Part shown: positions 9,043 to 33,887 of the stretch, in pieces
How positions within the stretch are numbered: position 1 is the stretch's first letter
Layout: every line of letters begins with the position of its first letter
Sequence record: PZ583739.1
Origin: a phage
Direction: 5' to 3' (one strand)
DNA length: 64,000 bases
Made by a program: the position numbers and the translations under genes
The notes under the pieces: model-generated
Databases searched by the model: none
Told to the model about the DNA's origin: nothing
The model's input: only the letters and a program-made list of their open reading frames with translations

Positions 9043-9333
9043 TCATTTACAACGTTCCTCTTTTAGTTCAGAACGATAATAACATAACATACCTTTTTGG
9101 TCATGTACATATCTTTTTACATCATTCATCCAAATCCGGAATTCTTGCGATGCTTCAAAAGGCATACCAACCCAGGCTTGACCCTCAATTACCTTAACTT
9201 CCCATTGCTGTTTGTAATCAGCCAATGCAACAGGCCAATTGGGATGAACTTGGATTGTGGGCTCCACAACGGGCTTCTGGGCACATGAAACGAGTCCAAT
9301 AGCCAAACATACTGCCATGATAGATTTCATCAT
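9043..9333 (-). CDS. o-spanin-like outer-membrane lipoprotein (pseT.2 position)
   Basis: signal peptide with lipobox GLVSC; ATGA overlap with the upstream i-spanin-like gene. Confidence 0.6.
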   Translation of the reverse strand: MMKSIMAVCLAIGLVSCAQKPVVEPTIQVHPNWPVALADYKQQWEVKVIEGQAWVGMPFEASQEFRIWMNDVKRYVHDQKGMLCYYRSELKEERCK

Positions 9334-23218: not shown

Positions 23219-26200
23219 ATGGCCGATATTTTAAAACCAGCATTCAGAGCAACATCCGGTCTCGATGCTGCTGGTGAGAAAGTCATTAATGTCGCAAAAG
23301 CTGATTACTCAGTTTTATCAGACGGCGTTAACGTAGGTTTCTTTATAGAAGAAAACACAATTCAACAATATGATGCGACGCGCGGATACAAAAAGAACTT
23401 TGCGGTTATTAATGATAACCGTATTTGGGTTGCTCAACGTGATATTCCGGCACCAGCTGGAGCATTTACCCCTCAGTATTGGTTAGCAACTCGTACTGAC
23501 CCTAAATGGGAAACTGTTGCATCTCCAACTCGTCAGCTTAGCTCCGGGGAATTTATCGCAGTCGACTCAGCTGCAAGCTTTACCACATTTACATTGCCTC
23601 CGAACCCGACTGATGGTGATACCATCGTTATTAAAGATATCGGCGGTAATACCGGTTATAATGAAATTAAAGTTCAATCGAGCAATGTGCCTGGTCAAGG
23701 TAACCAAAAGATTGTTCGCTTTGGTAATCAGTATCCGGAAATTTTAATTACCAAACCATTCTCTTATAACATGCTTATCTTTTCAAACCGCTTATGGCAA
23801 TTTTGGGAAGCTGGCAACGAAGAACGTGGCATCAGAATAGAACCATCGACAGGTCGTTTCCATGCACAAGCTGGCGACTTTATTATGCGTCGTTATACAA
23901 CTGGTGCACCGATTACTTTCATTCTTCCTAAGTATGCAAACCAGGGTGATATTGTCAAATCTGTTGATATCGATGGCATGGGACCAACGTTCCACCTGAT
24001 GGTTGAAACCTTTGACACCAGTTCCAGTCTTGGGAAAGCTGGCCAGCATCAAATGGAATTCCGTACCACAGGTGATGGTTTCTTCGTTTATGATGCTGCC
24101 GAAAAACTCTGGCATGTTTGGGACGGTGATTTTAAAACTCGTCTTCGCGTTATTCGCGACAGCGTTAAACTTTTACCAAACGAAAGTGTCATTGTATTTG
24201 GCGAAGATAACTCAACTCCGGCAACGATTAATATCGATTTGCCAACTAATGTTTTGCAAGGCGATATTGTTAAGATTGCGCTGAACTATCTCCGTAAATC
24301 GCAGACTGTTAATATAAGAGCTGCTGTTGGCGATAAGATTGCAACTGACATTAAATTGCTGCAATTCCCTAAACGTTCCGAGTATCCACCAGATACAACT
24401 TGGGTGATGGTTGATTCATTGACCTTTAATGGCAACATCAGTTATACTCCGGTTATTGAATTATCATATGCAGAAGATGCAGTGTCTGGAACAAGTTATT
24501 GGGTTGTCGCTCAGAACGTCCCGACTGTCGAACGAGTTGACTCATTAAATGATTCCACGCGTACACGTCTTGGTGTTATTGCTCTGGCAAACCAGACTCA
24601 GGCAAACGTTGACCATGAAAATAACCCAGAAAAAGAACTCGCAATTACCCCTCAGACTTTAGCCAACCGTGTTGCTAAAGAGAACCAACGAGGCATTGCC
24701 AGAATCGCAACGACTGCTCAAGTAAATCAGAACAGTGATTTTGCATTTGTTGATGATGTAATTATTTCTCCGAAAAAACTCAATGAACGTACGGCAACAG
24801 AAACGAGACGCGGGCTCGCAGAACTCGCCACACAGCAAGAAACCGATGCGGGTGTAGATGATACCACAATTATAACTCCAAAGAAACTGCAAGCTCGCCA
24901 GGGCTCAGAATCGCTATCCGGTATTGTAACTTACGTTTCAACGACTGGTGCAACTCCTGCTGCTTCGCGTGAATTAAATGGTACAAACGTTTATAATAAA
25001 AATACGGTTAATCTGGTTGTTTCTCCGAAAGCTCTTGACCAGTACAAAGCTACTTACACCCAACAAGGTGCGGTTATTCTTGCGGTTGAAAGTGAAGTAA
25101 TTGCTGGTACTTCTCAATCTGGATGGGCAAACGCAGTCGTTACTCCAGAAATGTTGCATCGCAAAACTGCTCTTGATTCCCGTATCGGTTTAATCGAGAT
25201 TGCAACTCAAGTAGAAACAGATGCAGGAACCGATTATACCAGAGCTGTGACTCCTAAAACGTTAAATGACCGTAAAGCATCAGAAACGTTAACCGGCATA
25301 GCCGAGATTGCTACGCAATCAGAATTTGATACTGGAACTGATGATACTCGTATCTCAACTCCATTAAAAATTAAAAATAGATTTAATAATACTGCTCGTA
25401 CTTCTGTTAATGCATTAAGTGGTTTAGTAGAAACAGGGACGCTCTGGGACCATTATAGCCTGAATATTCTTGAAGCAAATGAGACTCAGCGTGGTACGGC
25501 AAGATTAGCAACTCAGGGTGAAGTCAATACCGGCACTGACGATAAAACAATCGTTACCCCGCTTAAATTGATGTCGAAAAAAGCCACTGAAAATGCCGAA
25601 GGTATTGTTCGCATCGCGACAAACGCAGAAGCAACAGCAGGTACATCAAAAGTCTTGGCCATCAGTCCGTCAGCGCTGAAATATATTGCACAAACGGAAA
25701 CAACCTGGGAAGCATCTGAAACCCTACGTGGATTTGTTCGTTTATCTTCTGGTACAGCTACTTCGGCCGCAACTACAACGACTGGTGCAGGATTTACATA
25801 TGCAAATGGCGTGTATACTCCGGACCCAAGTAAACTGGTTAGCTACGCAAAATCTGGATATGCAGTTTCACCTTACGAATTAAACCGCGTATTGCAAAAC
25901 TTCCTACCGATAAATGCGATGGCTGTTAATGCTGAAAAACTGGATAACCTTGATTCGACCCAGTTTATTCGTCGTGATATTGCTCAGACTGTTGAAGGTG
26001 TGTTAACTCTTACCAAACAGACAAATATATCTGCTCCGGTTGTATCGACGAGCACTGCAGTGTTTACTGATGTAACGGCTGGCACTTCGACGTTCGGAAC
26101 TGTGAACGTTGTTAACGGAACTAACAAGTGGAAAATCACCGCTCCTTCCACCGGAACGACAATGACTATTGGCGATACGACTAACGTATTGACATTAAAC

Positions 26201-27175
26201 ACCGCCTCGGGTAATGCTGCTGTACTGAACAACCTTAGCGCCGGAAATGATGTTCAAGCCAAAAATAATTACGTTCTAAATGGTCGTACTATCGCAACCA
26301 CAACGGGTGAAGCTTCTGGTGCAACTCTGGCTCTGGGTGATAACTCGCAGAATTTAGTGCTTAAAACTCTTGATGCTGGTAATATCATAGCAAATGGTGG
26401 CGGTGCATTTAAAGTCCTGACCGAGAAAAACGCTGTTGAGATTGTAGATAGAAACTTTGTTAACCAAGGCGGTGATACAATGTCTGGTGTGCTCCATGTG
26501 AATGCTCCGGTCCGTGTATTCGGTACGAAACCAAGTCTTATCGCACAAGCTCCGACTGCAGATACTGTTGGCTTCTGGTCTGTCGATATCAATGATGAAC
26601 CGACTTATAGTCAGTTCCCTGGTTATTGGACAATGAAGTTAAAACGTCAGGTAAACATTGATACAGTTCAAACTAAACCTGCTGGGGTAACTGATGAAGT
26701 TTGGAATGCTTCTGGTTGGTTAACTGAAAATGGAACTTTCGCCTCGCCTGTTATTCGTTATCGTAATGACGATGGTACACTCGGTGATGAAGTATTAGGT
26801 AGCTCTGGCCAAAAACTGCGCGGAACCTGGTTTGACTATTCGGTTCGTGATAAGGAAGTTAAATACCCTGGTACGTTAACTCAGTTTGGTAATACATTGG
26901 ATTCATGTTATCAGGATTGGGTGTGTTATCCAACTGGATTGAACGGTGGTACTATTCGTTATACTCGTACATGGCAGAAAAATAAATCTGCATGGACGAC
27001 TTTTGCAATGGTTTACACCGCGGATAACCCTCCGTCTGCAGAGGATGTTGGTGCATTACCGGCCGACAACACAACAATGGGGAACTTAACCATTCTCGAT
27101 TGGTTGCGTATCGGTAACGTGCGCATCATCCCAGACCCGACCACTAAATCCGTTAAGTTTGAATGGGTTGAATAA
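23219..27175 (+). CDS. 34: long tail fibre proximal subunit gp34
   Basis: 1318 aa; N-terminus and C-terminal ...GNLTILDWLRIGNVRIIPDPTTKSVKFEWVE match T4 gp34 as remembered. Confidence 0.92.
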   Translation: MADILKPAFRATSGLDAAGEKVINVAKADYSVLSDGVNVGFFIEENTIQQYDATRGYKKNFAVINDNRIWVAQRDIPAPAGAFTPQYWLATRTDPKWETVASPTRQLSSGEFIAVDSAASFTTFTLPPNPTDGDTIVIKDIGGNTGYNEIKVQSSNVPGQGNQKIVRFGNQYPEILITKPFSYNMLIFSNRLWQFWEAGNEERGIRIEPSTGRFHAQAGDFIMRRYTTGAPITFILPKYANQGDIVKSVDIDGMGPTFHLMVETFDTSSSLGKAGQHQMEFRTTGDGFFVYDAAEKLWHVWDGDFKTRLRVIRDSVKLLPNESVIVFGEDNSTPATINIDLPTNVLQGDIVKIALNYLRKSQTVNIRAAVGDKIATDIKLLQFPKRSEYPPDTTWVMVDSLTFNGNISYTPVIELSYAEDAVSGTSYWVVAQNVPTVERVDSLNDSTRTRLGVIALANQTQANVDHENNPEKELAITPQTLANRVAKENQRGIARIATTAQVNQNSDFAFVDDVIISPKKLNERTATETRRGLAELATQQETDAGVDDTTIITPKKLQARQGSESLSGIVTYVSTTGATPAASRELNGTNVYNKNTVNLVVSPKALDQYKATYTQQGAVILAVESEVIAGTSQSGWANAVVTPEMLHRKTALDSRIGLIEIATQVETDAGTDYTRAVTPKTLNDRKASETLTGIAEIATQSEFDTGTDDTRISTPLKIKNRFNNTARTSVNALSGLVETGTLWDHYSLNILEANETQRGTARLATQGEVNTGTDDKTIVTPLKLMSKKATENAEGIVRIATNAEATAGTSKVLAISPSALKYIAQTETTWEASETLRGFVRLSSGTATSAATTTTGAGFTYANGVYTPDPSKLVSYAKSGYAVSPYELNRVLQNFLPINAMAVNAEKLDNLDSTQFIRRDIAQTVEGVLTLTKQTNISAPVVSTSTAVFTDVTAGTSTFGTVNVVNGTNKWKITAPSTGTTMTIGDTTNVLTLNTASGNAAVLNNLSAGNDVQAKNNYVLNGRTIATTTGEASGATLALGDNSQNLVLKTLDAGNIIANGGGAFKVLTEKNAVEIVDRNFVNQGGDTMSGVLHVNAPVRVFGTKPSLIAQAPTADTVGFWSVDINDEPTYSQFPGYWTMKLKRQVNIDTVQTKPAGVTDEVWNASGWLTENGTFASPVIRYRNDDGTLGDEVLGSSGQKLRGTWFDYSVRDKEVKYPGTLTQFGNTLDSCYQDWVCYPTGLNGGTIRYTRTWQKNKSAWTTFAMVYTADNPPSAEDVGALPADNTTMGNLTILDWLRIGNVRIIPDPTTKSVKFEWVE

Positions 27176-27183
27176 GAGGTAAT

Positions 27184-28314
27184 ATGGAAAAATTTATGGC
27201 AGAGTTTGGACAAGGATACGTCCAAACGCCAGTTATATCAGAAAATAATGCCGTTAAATTTAAAATGAGTATAGCAGGGAGCTGTACTCTTTCCACGGTG
27301 AAATCGTATATCAAATTTCAGGATGAACAAATCGGACCAACTACTTTTGGCAATGGTTTGACTCTATTAGAAATTGATACAACTACGAATAAAATTGTTA
27401 ACACGAAAAACTATTCATTGACCAGCACACATGATGTAATCAGTCAGGCATTAATCACCTTTGTGGAATCTGTTCCAGCTGGAAGATTGATTGCTTTTAT
27501 TTCTTCTGGGAAACTAAATGCCTCGCAAACATTAATTGACTGGCTTCGTAAATGTGGCTCAAGAGCATTCCCCGAGAAATGGCTGATTGATAAAGTTGAT
27601 ACATCGTACTCGGCTTTTTACATAACCGGCCGGAACGTAATTGTTTCGGAGCATGTTAAGTATAATGACGGGAAGTTAGTTGAGGATGTTTCGACTCCGC
27701 TTGAAGTCGTTTATGATACCTTTAGTGATATAGGAGCAACAGGCTATCCTGTGCGCATAACGGAAGACGAGAGCACGTATTCATCAACAGGTGATGGAAC
27801 ATCAACCTCAATTAGAAGGTTCCCCACAGAGGACCTGGTGACTCCTATGAGCACATATAACCTTTTACCTTTGGATGTGCTTTACCTGAAGTTTCAGATG
27901 TCATTTGACGCTGAACTGAAAGCCGCCGGGACTGTAAGGACTTCGGTTCGATTCTTTAAAAGTCCTAGCACTTCTCCGATATCAAATACAAACATCGATA
28001 TTGCAGCAAACGTTCCAGCTGGTGCATGGGTAAGTTTCGAAAGATATGTTGAGATTCCAGCGGGAGCCGATGGCTTTACAGTAGTAACATCAAGGACTGT
28101 AGCTGTGGGAACTGGGTCAATACGTAATATTGTTATTGGTGAGATAACCAGAGGTGACTCGGCATTCAAACCAGCTGAATTTGGTGTCAACGGCATAAGG
28201 ATGTCATATGCAAACGATGCAACAAATACAGGCAATACAATTGTAACATTACCAGATGCACAAGCTCCGAGAGCCGGCAAGATATACGCAGCCGAACTAC
28301 GAGAAAAACAATAG
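27184..28314 (+). CDS. 35: long tail fibre hinge protein gp35
   Basis: 376-aa ORF immediately after 34, SD GAGG; position and size as T4 gp35. Confidence 0.8.
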   Translation: MEKFMAEFGQGYVQTPVISENNAVKFKMSIAGSCTLSTVKSYIKFQDEQIGPTTFGNGLTLLEIDTTTNKIVNTKNYSLTSTHDVISQALITFVESVPAGRLIAFISSGKLNASQTLIDWLRKCGSRAFPEKWLIDKVDTSYSAFYITGRNVIVSEHVKYNDGKLVEDVSTPLEVVYDTFSDIGATGYPVRITEDESTYSSTGDGTSTSIRRFPTEDLVTPMSTYNLLPLDVLYLKFQMSFDAELKAAGTVRTSVRFFKSPSTSPISNTNIDIAANVPAGAWVSFERYVEIPAGADGFTVVTSRTVAVGTGSIRNIVIGEITRGDSAFKPAEFGVNGIRMSYANDATNTGNTIVTLPDAQAPRAGKIYAAELREKQ

Positions 28315-28381: not shown

Positions 28382-29029
28382 ATGGCAGATTTAAAACTAG
28401 GCTCAACAGCCGGAGGTTCGGTCCTCTGGCACCAGGGTAATTTCCCATTAACACCAGTCAGTAATGACTTATATTTCAAAACTTATAAAATTTATTCCGA
28501 ATATAACAAGCCACAAGCAGTCGATAACGATTTCGTTTCTAAAGCTCTTGGTGGTAATTATAAAGCAAACGTATATTTTGAACAAGGCCTGACATTTAAT
28601 GATTCAAATGGTTACGGGATTAAGTTGGGGGCGAGAACGGGCGGTGCACCATTTACAGCATCTTTCCGTATTAAAGGGCCGTTTGGATTTGAGACTGAAA
28701 CGGGAACACCATTCGTTATTTTTGACCCTGACACTACGACAGGAGCAAAACGTCTTACTGTTATGGGTGATACGTTAGCTCGACAGATTTATGATGAAAC
28801 AGGACGTGTATTTTCTCCAGGGAATACTCCGTCAAAAGCTCAAGTTGGTCTTAGTAATGTAACTAACCAGCAACAGGTGGAACTAAATAATAGTACATTG
28901 CAAACAATGACAGGTAACTTGTCAGCACCTAATTTCTTCTCTAGGAACCCAGCATCAGACCCGGCTCACGTGCCCCGTTTTGACCAAATCGTTCTTAAAG
29001 ACTCCGTACAAGATTTTGGATATTATTAA
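28382..29029 (+). CDS. 36: long tail fibre distal connector gp36
   Basis: 215-aa ORF between 35 and 37; MADLKLGSTAGGSVLWHQGNFPL... Confidence 0.8.
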   Translation: MADLKLGSTAGGSVLWHQGNFPLTPVSNDLYFKTYKIYSEYNKPQAVDNDFVSKALGGNYKANVYFEQGLTFNDSNGYGIKLGARTGGAPFTASFRIKGPFGFETETGTPFVIFDPDTTTGAKRLTVMGDTLARQIYDETGRVFSPGNTPSKAQVGLSNVTNQQQVELNNSTLQTMTGNLSAPNFFSRNPASDPAHVPRFDQIVLKDSVQDFGYY

Positions 29030-29037
29030 GAGGCATT

Positions 29038-32000
29038 ATGGCTACTTTAAAACAAATACAATTTAAAAGAAGTAAGGTTGCCGGCGTTCGCCCGGCGCCA
29101 ACAGTTCTTGCCGAAGGTGAACTGGCTATCAACTTGAAAGACCGCTTACTTTTTACTAAAGATGACACCGGCGCCATCATTGACCTTGGCTTTGCTAAAG
29201 GCGGTAATATTGATGGTAACGTTATTCATAACGGTAACTACACCCAAACCGGTGCCTATACTATAGCCGGAGCTATTTCACAAACGTCTGGACATTTTAC
29301 TACTACTGGTAATATAATAGCAACCGGTGATGTCACAGCAAAAGCCCGTTTAATGACAGATAATGGTGAAGTTCTTGTACGAGGTACAGGAACCACTCAT
29401 GTTCGATTCCAGGATTTGGCTGATGCTCGAGAAAGAGGTATAATTTATTCTCAAAACCGTACTGGGGATACCAAGCAAATCTTGAACGTTCGTGTTCAGG
29501 ATTACACTAATTCAACATCTAATATTTTTGCATTCAACGGCGATGGTTTATTTTATGCTCCGTCTATTTCCAGCGGAACATCGGTGAAATCTCCAGTAAT
29601 TTATACTAATACCGTTGATACTGGTAATAAATCAGCTCTTGATTATGATATATCTTCATTAGCAAATAATAATCCTGCAAGTTCAAGCGCAACAGCTATT
29701 AACTATCTTAGAATAAGTAGACACGCTGTCGATGGAATTAGGTATCGTGAACTTAATAATGTAAATGGTATTTCATGGCATTCTATTTCTACAGCCGGAA
29801 CAGCTAAGTATCTTTGGTCATTTAATGCAGATGGCGATGTCAAAACATCAAATTCTCTTTCCGTTGGCCTACCTGGGGATAGCTCAGGATACTCAACATT
29901 AGGTCCGTCTGCTATCGCACTTGGTGACAATAACACAGGTTTGAAATGGAAACAAGACGGTCAGTTCCATACAATTAATAATGGAGCTTATACTTTACTT
30001 ACATCTCCAACTGAAGTTACAAGCCTTAAACAGTTAGTTGCGGGTTATTCAACCAACGGTTCTGATTTAATTCTTCCTACAACTCAAAACTATCCATTAG
30101 TTATTGTTAATACTACTAATGATAAAAACGGCTTCGGCGACGGTCAAACTCTTTTAGGTTACCACCAAAGCGGCAAATATCACCATTATTTTCGTGGCAA
30201 AGGTGTAACAAACGTTAACACCGATGGTGGGTTGTTGGTTACTCCTGGCAACGTTGAAGTCCGTGGTGGTTCGGTTAATATTGATGGTCTCAGTAATGCT
30301 TCGACAGTGCTTTTTAAAGGAAATACAACAGGAAGTAGTTCAGTTGATAATATAGAGCTCAAAGTTTGGGGTGACACTTTTAATACAGTAGATGGTTCTC
30401 GTAAAAACGTAGTGGAAATATCCGATGCTACTAGCTGGATGCACTATATTCAACGAACTACAGCAGGTAAAGTCGAATCCTATTTAAATGGTACCATGAA
30501 TGTAATTGAAGGATTGTCTGTCAATCAAGATACATCCTTAAAACGCAATCTGTATGTTTCCAATGAAATTAAAGTTCGCGCGGCGAGTGGTCTTCGTATT
30601 TGGAACGATAAGTACGGTGTTATTTTTCGAAATTCAGAAGACCAGCTGCATATTATCCCAACCAATGTTAATGCCGGCGAAAGTGGCGGATTAGGTCCAT
30701 TACGCCCATTAAGTATTATGTTAGACACGGGTCTGGTTAAAATCCCTAACTTAGAAGCAGACCAGGTTTCTTTTAAGGGTAGCGGCGTATTAGAATTCCC
30801 TAATAGTAGCGGCGCATCTTATGCCAACCAGAACACGACTAAAGCTCCGTTGTATCAAGCACTTGATGCTGCGACTCAAGCATTTTATCCTATTACTAAG
30901 CAGAAAAATATCGATTCGAATGTAACTGTTACGCAAGGTATGGACCGAGCTACGAGCGAATACCGAATTGTTGCCCAAGGTGATTTGCTTGGCGATGGCG
31001 TTACAACCGGATTAAAATACTGGCGCTTTACCAAAGAAGGTAACTTCATGGCCCAGAACCGCTTATATGCCGGTACAGCTTATATGAATACCGATGGTAA
31101 TATTGCAGGTTCTATTTGGAAAAAGTATAGCGGTGCTACTAACCTTGACGCAGCGGTGAATACTCGTGTAGGTAAAGGCGGCGATACAATGACAGGTAAA
31201 TTGGTCATTGATGCTCCAGGCGATCCTTTAGTATTAAAAACAACCGCAGGTAATAGCTCGCATATCCGTTCTGATGTAAATGGTACCGGCAACTGGTATG
31301 TTGGTAAAGGTGGCGATGATAACGGAATAGCTCTTTACAGTTATGCTACCAACTCGGGTATGTACATCACTAATGATGGGGCTTTCAACGTAGAACTTTC
31401 TGGTGCTGGCTTAGCAATGCAGATGAATTATTATCGCATGTATGTTAATGGCCGAGCATGGGTTAATACACAAGGTCATGGTTACGGAAACCAATGGCAA
31501 ACAGAAGCTCCTTATTTCGTCGACTTTGGTGAATCTGTTCCTAAAGATAGCTATATGCCAATTATCAAAGGAAAAAGCACTCTAATTACCGACGGATATT
31601 CTACTAAAGCAGACTTTGGTATTATTCGATTAGGTGGAGCTGCTACTTGGGGTTCTGCTGTTATTCGTGTGGGTTCTGCCGAAAGCGGCGATGCAAGCCA
31701 TCCTAATGCAATATTTGTATTTCAGGCCAATGGTGATTTTGTTGCACCTGCCGGTTTACGAGCCAGAGCTAACCTAGGCGTGGGCACAATCCCGGTATGG
31801 GGCGGCGCATCCATTGCCATTGGGGACGATGACACCGGCTTAGTCCATGGTGGTGACGGTCGAATTAATATGTATGCTAACTCGCAACATATTGCAAGCT
31901 GGGGAGCCGGTTATCAGATTCATGAAGGTCTTTGGGATACCCATGGGGCTTTGTGGACTGAAACAGGAAAAGCTATTATTTCTTATGGGCATTTAGTCCA

Positions 32001-32382
32001 ACAAAGTGATGCCTATTCTACATATGTCCGTGATGTGTATGTCCGTTCTGATATTCGTGTTAAAAAAGACCTTGTTAAATTTGAAAATGCTTCTCGGAAG
32101 CTTTCTAAAATTAACGGCTACACATATATGCAGAAACGTGGAACTGACGAAGAAGGTAATCAGAAATGGGAACCTAATGCTGGTTTAATTGCTCAAGAAG
32201 TTCAAGCTATTTTACCTGAATTGGTTGAAGGCGACCCTGATGGTGAAGCTTTACTTCGTTTGAACTATAACGGTGTAATTGGTTTAAATACAGCTGCAAT
32301 CAATGAGCACACTGCAGAAATAGCAGAATTGAAATCAGAGATTGAAGAACTTAAAGCTTTAGTTAAATCATTGTTAAAATAA
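29038..32382 (+). CDS. 37: long tail fibre distal subunit gp37 with C-terminal chaperone-like module
   Basis: 1114 aa; [43 protein letters not shown]... matches gp37 N-terminus; C-terminal SDIRVKKDL...GYTYMQK... then heptad-like [22 protein letters not shown]. Confidence 0.88.
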
Positions 32383-32387
32383 TAAGA

Positions 32388-32401
32388 GGGGCTTCGGCCC
32401 C
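32388..32401 (+). other. intergenic GC hairpin between genes 37 and 38
   Basis: GGGGC-ttcg-GCCCC directly before the gene 38 SD; no strong T-run, so probably not a full terminator. Confidence 0.35.
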
Positions 32402-32413
32402 TTGGAGGTTTAT

Positions 32414-33196
32414 ATGGCAGTAGTAGGACCGTGGGTAGGGTGGTCTGCGAGGGTACAAACTGGGGACCCTTGGATGGGCGGCGCTGCCCAACGATTGAGA
32501 ATGGGTATTCCGTTTTGGATGAGTAATATGGTAGGTCGGTCTGTTGAAATAATTCACACACTTGGAGCCGACCATAACTTTAACGGGCAATGGTTTAGAG
32601 ACCGTTGTTTTGAAGCCGGTGCTGCCCCTATTGTGTTTAATATCACAGGTGATTTAGTATCTTATACTAAAGATGTTCCGTTGTTCTTTATGTATGGCGA
32701 TACCCCTAATGAATACGTTACTTTGAATATTCACGGCGGGGTCCATATGTGGGGCCGTGGTGGTAACGGTGGGACCCGTGTTTGGGTAGCGGGTACAAAT
32801 GGTGGTGATGTAATTCAAAACGACATTGGTGGCAGACTCCGTATCTGGAACTATGGCGTTATAGCTTCAGGGGGCGGCGGCGGTGCCGGATGTGCTTCAA
32901 ATAACTCTTGGCTTGTGGCGGGTACAGCTGGTGGCGGTGGCGGTAGACCATATGGATTAGGTGGTACTAATGGCGCCGTAAACCCAGGCGGCAACGCTAG
33001 TTATACCGGACCAGGTGGCGGTGGTAGCTTTGGTGGACAGTGGGGTGGTGGTAATGGCGGCGACGCGGGTGGGGCTGGTGGCGGCGCTTACGGACGAAGC
33101 GTTACATACGGCTCACAAGGCGGAGCTGGACGAGCTGTATTCGGAAGTTCTCCTTCATGGGGCGCTACAGGCACTATCTACGGCTCCTGGCTATAG
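32414..33196 (+). CDS. 38: T2-type receptor-binding adhesin gp38 (glycine-rich motifs)
   Basis: ATG 32414 after SD GGAGG (track start 32402 is TTG); [11 protein letters not shown]...; C-terminal half has poly-Gly motifs separated by variable segments. Confidence 0.85.
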
Positions 33197-33233: not shown

Positions 33234-33887
33234 ATGGAACCAAAAGTAGGAATATCAATACCCGACCTACTTTTTGGACTTCTTGATAGAATTTTTAAAG
33301 ATAATGCGACCGGGAAAGTTGTTTTTTCCCGGGTACTAGTTATTGTTCTATTATTTTTAATGGCGGTAATCTGGTATAAAGGTGATGCACTTTTAGATGC
33401 GTACAGGGATGCTTCATATGCCTCATACACAGAAATGATAAGGCAAGACCAGGACAACAGATTTAAAATTGCAGCTATCGAGCAAATCCAGATAGTCCAC
33501 TCGTCAAGTGGGGCAGACTTTACAGCAATATATTCTTTTAGACCAACTAACCTTAACTACTTTGTGGATATGGTGGGATACGAGGGGATATTGCCTGATA
33601 CAGTCGACGAAAAAAATTTAGGTGGGTTTCCAATAGATAAAACTTCGGCGGAATATTTGGCGGGGGTTAATGGTAATTATTTTGAATCCAGTACGGAATC
33701 TGTATTCTTACCAACAAAGAAAAAAAGCAGCTTCTCATATATGTTCAGCTGCCCATTCTTTAATTTGGAAAACGTTTATGCAGGTACAGTCTCACTGTAC
33801 TGGTATAAGCAAAAACCTAACCTTGGTTTTGATAGGCTTTCTGCTATGTGTGGACAAGCAGGTCGTACGCTTGGGCGTACACGTTAG
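33234..33887 (+). CDS. t: holin
   Basis: 217 aa; ...DLLFGLLDRIFKDNATGKV..., ...LNYFVDMVGYEG..., C-terminal ...MCGQAGRTLGRT match T4 holin T as remembered. Confidence 0.9.
   Translation: MEPKVGISIPDLLFGLLDRIFKDNATGKVVFSRVLVIVLLFLMAVIWYKGDALLDAYRDASYASYTEMIRQDQDNRFKIAAIEQIQIVHSSSGADFTAIYSFRPTNLNYFVDMVGYEGILPDTVDEKNLGGFPIDKTSAEYLAGVNGNYFESSTESVFLPTKKKSSFSYMFSCPFFNLENVYAGTVSLYWYKQKPNLGFDRLSAMCGQAGRTLGRTR

Follow-up and report, generated by a model that had tools for sequence, protein, structure and literature searches.

Results

A fibre locus with a self-cleaving module at its tip?

Does the distal subunit of the long tail fibre of this phage carry its own folding chaperone, and would that chaperone be cut away before the adhesin is attached? 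An original prediction, made from the letters of the DNA, had proposed that the C-terminal part of gp37 resembles the self-cleaving chaperone domains of phage fibres and spikes, and that the fibre tip matures by autoproteolysis around the time of gp38 attachment. In the window (the whole stretch of 64,000 nucleotides analysed, from phage record PZ583739.1), gp37 is encoded within a T-even-type long-tail-fibre operon on the + strand, with the gene order gp34-gp35-gp36-gp37-gp38-holin t (Table 1). PHROG 1699 ('long tail fiber protein distal subunit') matches residues 1-1003 of gp37 at E 4e-270, and the Pfam families gp37_trimer and Gp34_trimer match upstream of the C-terminal domain described below; NCBIfam returned no match for gp37 or gp38, an uninformative outcome. 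The gp37 frame is closed by TAA at 32380-32382 and a second TAA, and the gp38 gene lies directly downstream. The nearest GenBank records to g37-g38 come from Tevenvirinae phages about 170 kb in size, among them vB_EcoM_RZ of the genus Gaprivervirus.

Elsewhere in the operon, residues 57-128 of the gp35-like hinge protein match Pfam PF15711 (ILEI/FAM3, 'interleukin-like EMT inducer'; E 1.4e-6, 29.1 bits against a cutoff of 27). A 'GG domain' has been named as common to phage tail fibres and FAM3 cytokines (PMC3742443); the match is probably this domain and hence known.

Table 1. Features of the long-tail-fibre locus, with positions in the 64,000-nucleotide window
Feature	Position	Strand	Details
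gp34-like ORF	23219-27175	+	1318 aa
gp35-like ORF	27184-28314	+	376 aa
gp36-like ORF	28382-29029	+	215 aa
gp37, long tail fibre distal subunit precursor	29038..32382	+	1114 aa, 119.5 kDa calculated
Conserved pre-cleavage tip	31987..32046	+	aa 984-1003 (20 aa); putative gp38 docking surface
Predicted scissile bond Arg1003-Ser1004	32044..32049	+	from alignment to the S16 and fPS-phage sites and from the start of 3GUD_A
Ser1004 codon (tct), predicted nucleophile	32047..32049	+	invariant in alignment A1; equals T5 pb1 Ser1264 and MYRF S578
C-terminal intramolecular chaperone (IMC / Peptidase S74) domain	32047..32379	+	aa 1004-1114, 111 aa, 12.3 kDa
Lys1009 codon (aaa), predicted general base	32062..32064	+	invariant in A1; five residues past Ser, like T5 Lys1269 and MYRF K583
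Long C-terminal alpha-helix with heptad repeat	32266..32376	+	aa 1077-1113, predicted trimeric coiled-coil core of the IMC
Stem-loop GAGGGGC-UUCG-GCCCCUU, g37-g38 spacer	32386..32403	+	RNA fold; outside the protein module
gp38 adhesin, partner capping mature gp37	32414..33196	+	260 aa; Pfam GP38 E 1.4e-79, Gp38_N E 8.7e-20
Holin t	33234-33887	+	PHROG 860

The last 111 residues of gp37 are a Peptidase S74 domain

gp37 ends in an intramolecular chaperone (IMC) domain that begins at Ser1004, runs to the last residue, belongs to the Peptidase S74 family, retains the family's catalytic residues and is followed by a cognate gp38. Every string quoted in the original prediction is found by direct translation: SDIRVKKDL spans aa 1004-1012 (nt 32047-32073), GYTYMQK lies at aa 1027-1033 (starting at nt 32116), and the terminal stretch of 22 residues, described as a heptad-like helix, is aa 1093-1114 (nt 32314-32379), reaching the stop codon. 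Within that helix the residues I-L-I-L-V-L are spaced 3,4,3,4,3, a clean a/d pattern of three perfect heptads. The extent given originally, the last ~120 aa from 32020, was close, and the module is in fact 111 aa long: position 32020 falls in codon 995, nine codons upstream of the Ser1004 boundary at 32047.

The search with the Peptidase S74 profile that had been proposed as a check gave a clear match. PF13884 ('chaperone of endosialidase') aligns to aa 1004-1063 over profile positions 1-57 of 58, scoring 53.0 bits (E 4.1e-14) on a 140-aa C-terminal fragment and 48.0 bits (E 1.5e-12) on whole gp37, against a gathering cutoff of 22. In PDB, the top match of the single sequence is the S16 gp37 construct 6F45_A (E 3.6e-38), aligned to the last residue. 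A profile built from 11 homologues of the module additionally matched the MYRF ICA domain (7DC3, E 2.6e-9), a tail fibre (8JOV, E 5e-7), the released IMC of GA-1 (3GUD, E 0.008) and a T5-type L-shaped fibre (8HQZ, E 0.06). The released GA-1 chain 3GUD_A begins, with SDERHK, exactly at the Ser that aligns with Ser1004.

The predicted fold agrees with the sequence matches. Searching for homologues with the 140-aa fragment yielded only 12 short proteins, so the alignment was shallow and the AlphaFold model of the monomeric fragment moderate (mean pLDDT 67, higher in the module); the first 32 residues, which belong to the beta-helix tip, are unmodelled as a monomer. A single helix of 37 residues covers aa 1077-1113 (residues 103-139 of the fragment) at pLDDT of about 86-93. 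The top three PDB matches of this model in Foldseek are the MYRF ICA domain (7DC3; E 2.5e-4, probability 1.0, TM 0.50), and 3GUD, 3GW6 and 4UW8 are among the top 22, with weak E-values (0.6-2.7) and with unrelated proteins in between. A search of BFVD, a library of predicted viral structures, gave 154 matches at E<=1e-3, and the top 50 listed are gp37, tail fibre, neck appendage, 'Peptidase S74 domain-containing' or 'Intramolecular chaperone auto-processing domain' proteins. When an HMM made from the relatives was run against all six frames of the window, it found one IMC domain (E 8.8e-45); a second copy, for instance in gp34 or another fibre, was looked for in the same search and none was found, the next best match having an E of 0.3. 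The best overall explanation, to which we assign a probability of about 0.9, is that gp37 residues 1004-1114 make up an intramolecular chaperone of the S74 family that would help the trimer to fold, cut itself off and leave the tip to gp38, as set out in the model below.

A predicted Ser-Lys cleavage site follows a conserved fibre tip

In S74 proteins such as T5 pb1 and MYRF, the Ser that opens the domain is the nucleophile and is activated by a Lys five residues later (PMC4690869, PMC3742443), and a neighbouring chain of the trimer, once folded, supplies the Arg that completes the active site, with the result that cleavage reports correct trimer folding (PMC4690869, PMC3742443). The T5 pb1 active site comprises Ser1264, Lys1269 and Arg1250, the last of which lies 14 residues upstream and stabilises the oxyanion (PMC4690869). 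At the centre of the T5 IMC lies a trimeric coiled coil (PMC4690869), and cleavage of MYRF, which carries an S578/K583 dyad, depends on its leucine zipper (PMC3742443).

The corresponding residues are present in gp37. S1004, D1005 and K1009 are invariant in alignment A1; in the profile matches to PDB they align with the SDERHK start of 3GUD and with D-L-R-A-K in MYRF, and Ser1004 and Lys1009 are likewise invariant in the gp37 subfamily. Homology places the predicted cut at DVYVR(1003)-S(1004)DIRVKK, which would divide the 119.5 kDa precursor into a mature gp37 of 107.1 kDa and an IMC of 12.3 kDa. The gp37 subfamily does not conserve the sensor residues of the T5/K1F type, an Arg at -14 and an Asp at -25, at these positions; conserved candidates upstream of the cut in that subfamily are Arg998 (-6), Arg1003 (-1), Asp999 and Asp991.

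Immediately before SDIRVK lies the motif G[HD]L.Q..D..ST[YF][VC]RD[VIL][YF][VI]R, which is kept in the closest gp37 relatives and aligns with ...IYCRDLNVS-S of S16. By analogy with the systems described in PMC7917993 and PMC6851490, aa 984-1003 would form the last strands of the mature fibre and serve in docking. Strong conservation of the ~20 residues before the cut in the gp37 subfamily is expected of a docking surface.

A cognate gp38 and a conserved hairpin lie downstream of gp37

The gp38 encoded downstream aligns over its full length with S16 gp38 (6F45_D, E 3.6e-47), is 45% identical to T2 gp38, and has tryptophans W7, W20 and W35 in its N-terminal docking region aligned with those of S16 gp38. 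The base of the gp37 beta-helix has pockets that receive N-terminal tryptophans of gp38 (PMC6851490). While the list of open reading frames starts gp38 at the TTG at 32402, the ATG at 32414 yields MAVVGPWVG..., lies 5 nt past a GGAGG (32404-32408) and gives an N-terminus that matches S16 and T2 gp38. From this spacing and this match, 32414 is likely the true gp38 start.

Downstream of the double stop of g37, and ahead of the GGAGG that serves g38 as ribosome-binding site, sits a stable hairpin with a C(UUCG)G tetraloop, which might stabilise the mRNA, mark a site of processing or couple translation; the 56-nt stretch that contains it (32370-32425) folds at -17.7 kcal/mol (z -2.6). The g37-g38 spacer of T2 has the same kind of hairpin, AGAGGGC-TTCG-GCCCTCT, at about 9056-9073 of T2 sequence L001, and its occurrence at the same place indicates that the hairpin is conserved.

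The fibre locus is strongly mosaic: by megablast against the phage collection, only 5 records reach a coverage of 80% or more of g37-g38. Over the IMC and the gp38 N-terminus the DNA is at best 96% identical, and this conserved block is flanked by variable shaft and adhesin-loop segments. One might speculate that the block of IMC, UUCG hairpin and gp38 N-terminus serves as a recombination linker for swaps of adhesin cassettes, and that the released 37-kDa IMC trimer has a second role, such as timing the loading of gp38; we consider this unlikely.

A model for maturation of the fibre tip

Processing of this kind has been described in close homologues. According to PMC7917993, which cites Dunne et al. 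2018, gp37 of S16 first trimerises and then cuts off its C-terminal 113 residues by itself at DLNVS^SDRRIKK, uncovering the surface on which gp38 docks, and S16 is listed among the fibres whose C-terminal IMCs are removed by autoproteolysis (PMC7289586). The gp37 of T2 and T6 is recounted in PMC3157838 (citing Drexler, Riede & Henning 1986) as losing a C-terminal piece by proteolysis before gp38 caps it. For Tequatrovirus phages, release of the IMC at DVYIR^SDGRLKI followed by gp38 docking has been predicted (PMC7917993).

By analogy, the IMC would bring three gp37 chains into register from their C-termini, with the long terminal helices forming a trimeric coiled coil, and would thereby give the distal triple beta-helix a nucleus from which to fold. 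Ser1004 would adjoin Lys1009 and be activated by it only once the trimer is correctly folded, and the Arg1003-Ser1004 bond would then be cut in each chain. The IMC trimer (3 x 12.3 kDa) would then dissociate, leaving a mature gp37 of 107 kDa that ends in ...YVRDVYVR, and one gp38 adhesin would cap the exposed flat tip through its N-terminal attachment domain of three helices and three tryptophans. The folding function, self-cleavage, release and the placing of cleavage ahead of gp38 docking are all carried over from the close homologues. The original prediction had maturation occurring before or during gp38 attachment; the order given in the literature (cleavage, IMC release, then gp38 docking) favours the former and not the latter.

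The similarity that underlies this model has been checked against the possibility of a chance or low-complexity match, in which a coiled coil and short motifs would imitate an IMC domain without homology to one. Heptad helices do attract spurious matches, which is a general caution only; the Pfam match (E 4e-14) falls on the module's N-terminal 60 residues, which are not helical, 6F45_A is matched at E 3.6e-38, and 10,520 clusters match at E<=1e-3. Given the E-values of the PF13884, 6F45_A and cluster matches, chance similarity is ruled out, its probability being negligible. A homologous module might still be retained as a permanent trimerisation or coiled-coil domain that goes uncleaved, with gp38 attached to it or to some other site. 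Some variants of the domain probably do not cleave, since P0034 (Pro) and P0130 (Gln) are without the nucleophile; against retention here, the dyad of Ser1004 and Lys1009 is intact and does not vary within the gp37 subfamily, gp38 has the same N-terminal attachment domain as S16, and the S16 IMC, 57% identical, is reported as autocleaved in the account cited above, with gp38 docking on the exposed end of gp37. Retention is thus very improbable.

Equally improbable is that a different protease, of the host or the phage, and not the Ser-Lys dyad of the domain itself, removes the C-terminal piece. As recounted in PMC3157838, the 1986 work on T2 established processing but is not said to have established autocatalysis, which leaves some room for such an enzyme. 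Yet a Ser-to-Ala change in T5 pb1 blocks cleavage on expression in E. coli (PMC4690869), S578A and K583A each stop cleavage of MYRF in E. coli, yeast and human cells (PMC3742443), and S16 cleavage, as far as it is covered in PMC7917993 and PMC7289586, is described as autocleavage; the dyad is conserved in gp37. The autoproteolytic reading of the gp37 C-terminus, which the resemblance to self-cleaving domains had suggested, is therefore supported by the Pfam, PDB and fold matches together with the intact Ser/Lys dyad, and cleavage in this phage would follow by homology.

Comparison with known fibre chaperones

The closest precedent is S16, whose gp37 (6F45) is the same T-even-type protein with a gp38 adhesin and has its IMC at the same position. 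The two are 57% identical over the 111-aa module, and the SD(I/R)R(V/I)KKD motif, the GYTY strand, a 14-aa stretch and the terminal heptad helix all align; a homologous gp38 with docking tryptophans follows in S16 as well. The S16 domain is 113 rather than 111 aa long, the residue before the cut is Ser (DLNVS-S) and not Arg (DVYVR-S), only 14/37 residues are identical in the roughly 40 before the site, and the receptor-binding loops of gp38 differ. T2 shares a homologous NVYIR-SDIRLK site, an S74-type module in gp37 and the C(UUCG)G hairpin before g38. Its module is shorter, with 99 aa after the Ser, BLASTP identity is 29% over the 260-aa C-terminal stretch compared, and its gp38 N-terminus is of another subtype (GVPGWIG in T2, GPWVGW here). 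The gp37 proteins of the Yersinia Tequatrovirus phages fPS-2, -65 and -90, which are different phages with different hosts, have nearly the same site, DVYIR^SDGRLKI as against DVYVR^SDIRVKK here, and both sites are predicted.

Among the founding Peptidase S74 members, namely K1F endoNF (3GW6), the GA-1 neck appendage (3GUD) and T5 pb1 (4UW8), the IMC likewise belongs to the Pfam family, carries the Ser-x4-Lys dyad and forms the very C-terminal end of a fibre or spike that is a beta-helical trimer; it also has a coiled-coil core, which in gp37 is predicted. The T5 IMC has 133 aa, compared with a minimal 111 in gp37, and T5 and K1F have a long beta-hairpin 'tentacle' insertion that is apparently missing in gp37, where the AlphaFold model has short hairpins only. 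Rather than acting as the receptor-binding surface itself, the gp37 tip would be capped by a separate adhesin after cleavage. The eukaryotic homologue MYRF (ICA domain, 7DC3) is the best structural match and shares the S/D/K/G key residues and a leucine zipper, predicted in the case of gp37; its domain, however, is internal and followed by a transmembrane segment, cleavage releases a transcription factor, and the biology is unrelated.

The original prediction is a correct reading of a well-known feature. The same module has been documented structurally or biochemically in S16, T2, T5, K1F, GA-1 and MYRF, and public databases label it Peptidase S74. Maturation through gp37, IMC and gp38 has been published for S16 and T2, according to the accounts cited above, and predicted for near-identical Tequatrovirus sequences. 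Departures from precedent are trivial variation only (Arg instead of Ser at P1; 111 versus 113 aa). The value of the assignment lies in annotation and engineering, not in discovery, and current understanding is unchallenged. With the boundary predicted at Arg1003-Ser1004, expression or re-targeting constructs should keep the IMC for folding, and the predicted end of the mature fibre, ...DVYVR, is where gp38 would dock. The cut would also make gp37 from virions about 12 kDa lighter in proteomics than the gene predicts.

The module is widespread and mostly C-terminal

To gauge the spread of the module, 1.84 billion cluster representatives were searched, and 10,520 representative clusters match at E<=1e-3. 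Among the 160 relatives inspected, S-D-x3-K is found at the aligned position in 156, and the domain lies within 20 aa of the C-terminus in 136. At least 28 PHROG families are matched by the module as well, over the final ~100 positions of their profiles, and 26 of the 28 listed are tail families; its placement at the very end of so many families fits a portable C-terminal cassette. At the level of whole records, 179 GenBank phage records contain an IMC protein at least 95% identical, and by tblastn T5-like fibres match the module at 36-42% identity.

Several relatives depart from this arrangement. In P0034 (PDRRVK) and P0130 (QDKNKK) the nucleophilic Ser is replaced by Pro and Gln, respectively, with the Lys kept; judging by these substitutions, they may be forms of the IMC domain that do not cleave. 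In 24 of the 160 relatives (for example P0030, P0047 and P0128) the S74 module has an internal position, with ~100 to several hundred residues after it. Such proteins, if they cleave, would release a C-terminal piece larger than the bare chaperone, comparable to the arrangement in MYRF. Two matched stretches occur in 5 of the 150 representatives listed (for example P0030, P0083 and P0128), not all of which are among the 24 with an internal module.

Finally, three relatives on contigs of 165-167 kb (P0001, P0002 and P0004) are ORFs of 170 aa that start with MVANG... and contain no more of gp37 than the final ~60 shaft residues and the IMC; they are annotated as 'tail fiber domain-containing protein [Escherichia coli]'. 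These look like C-terminal fragments of gp37, whether from a split or frameshifted g37, from a gene-calling artefact or from phage contigs labelled with the name of the host.
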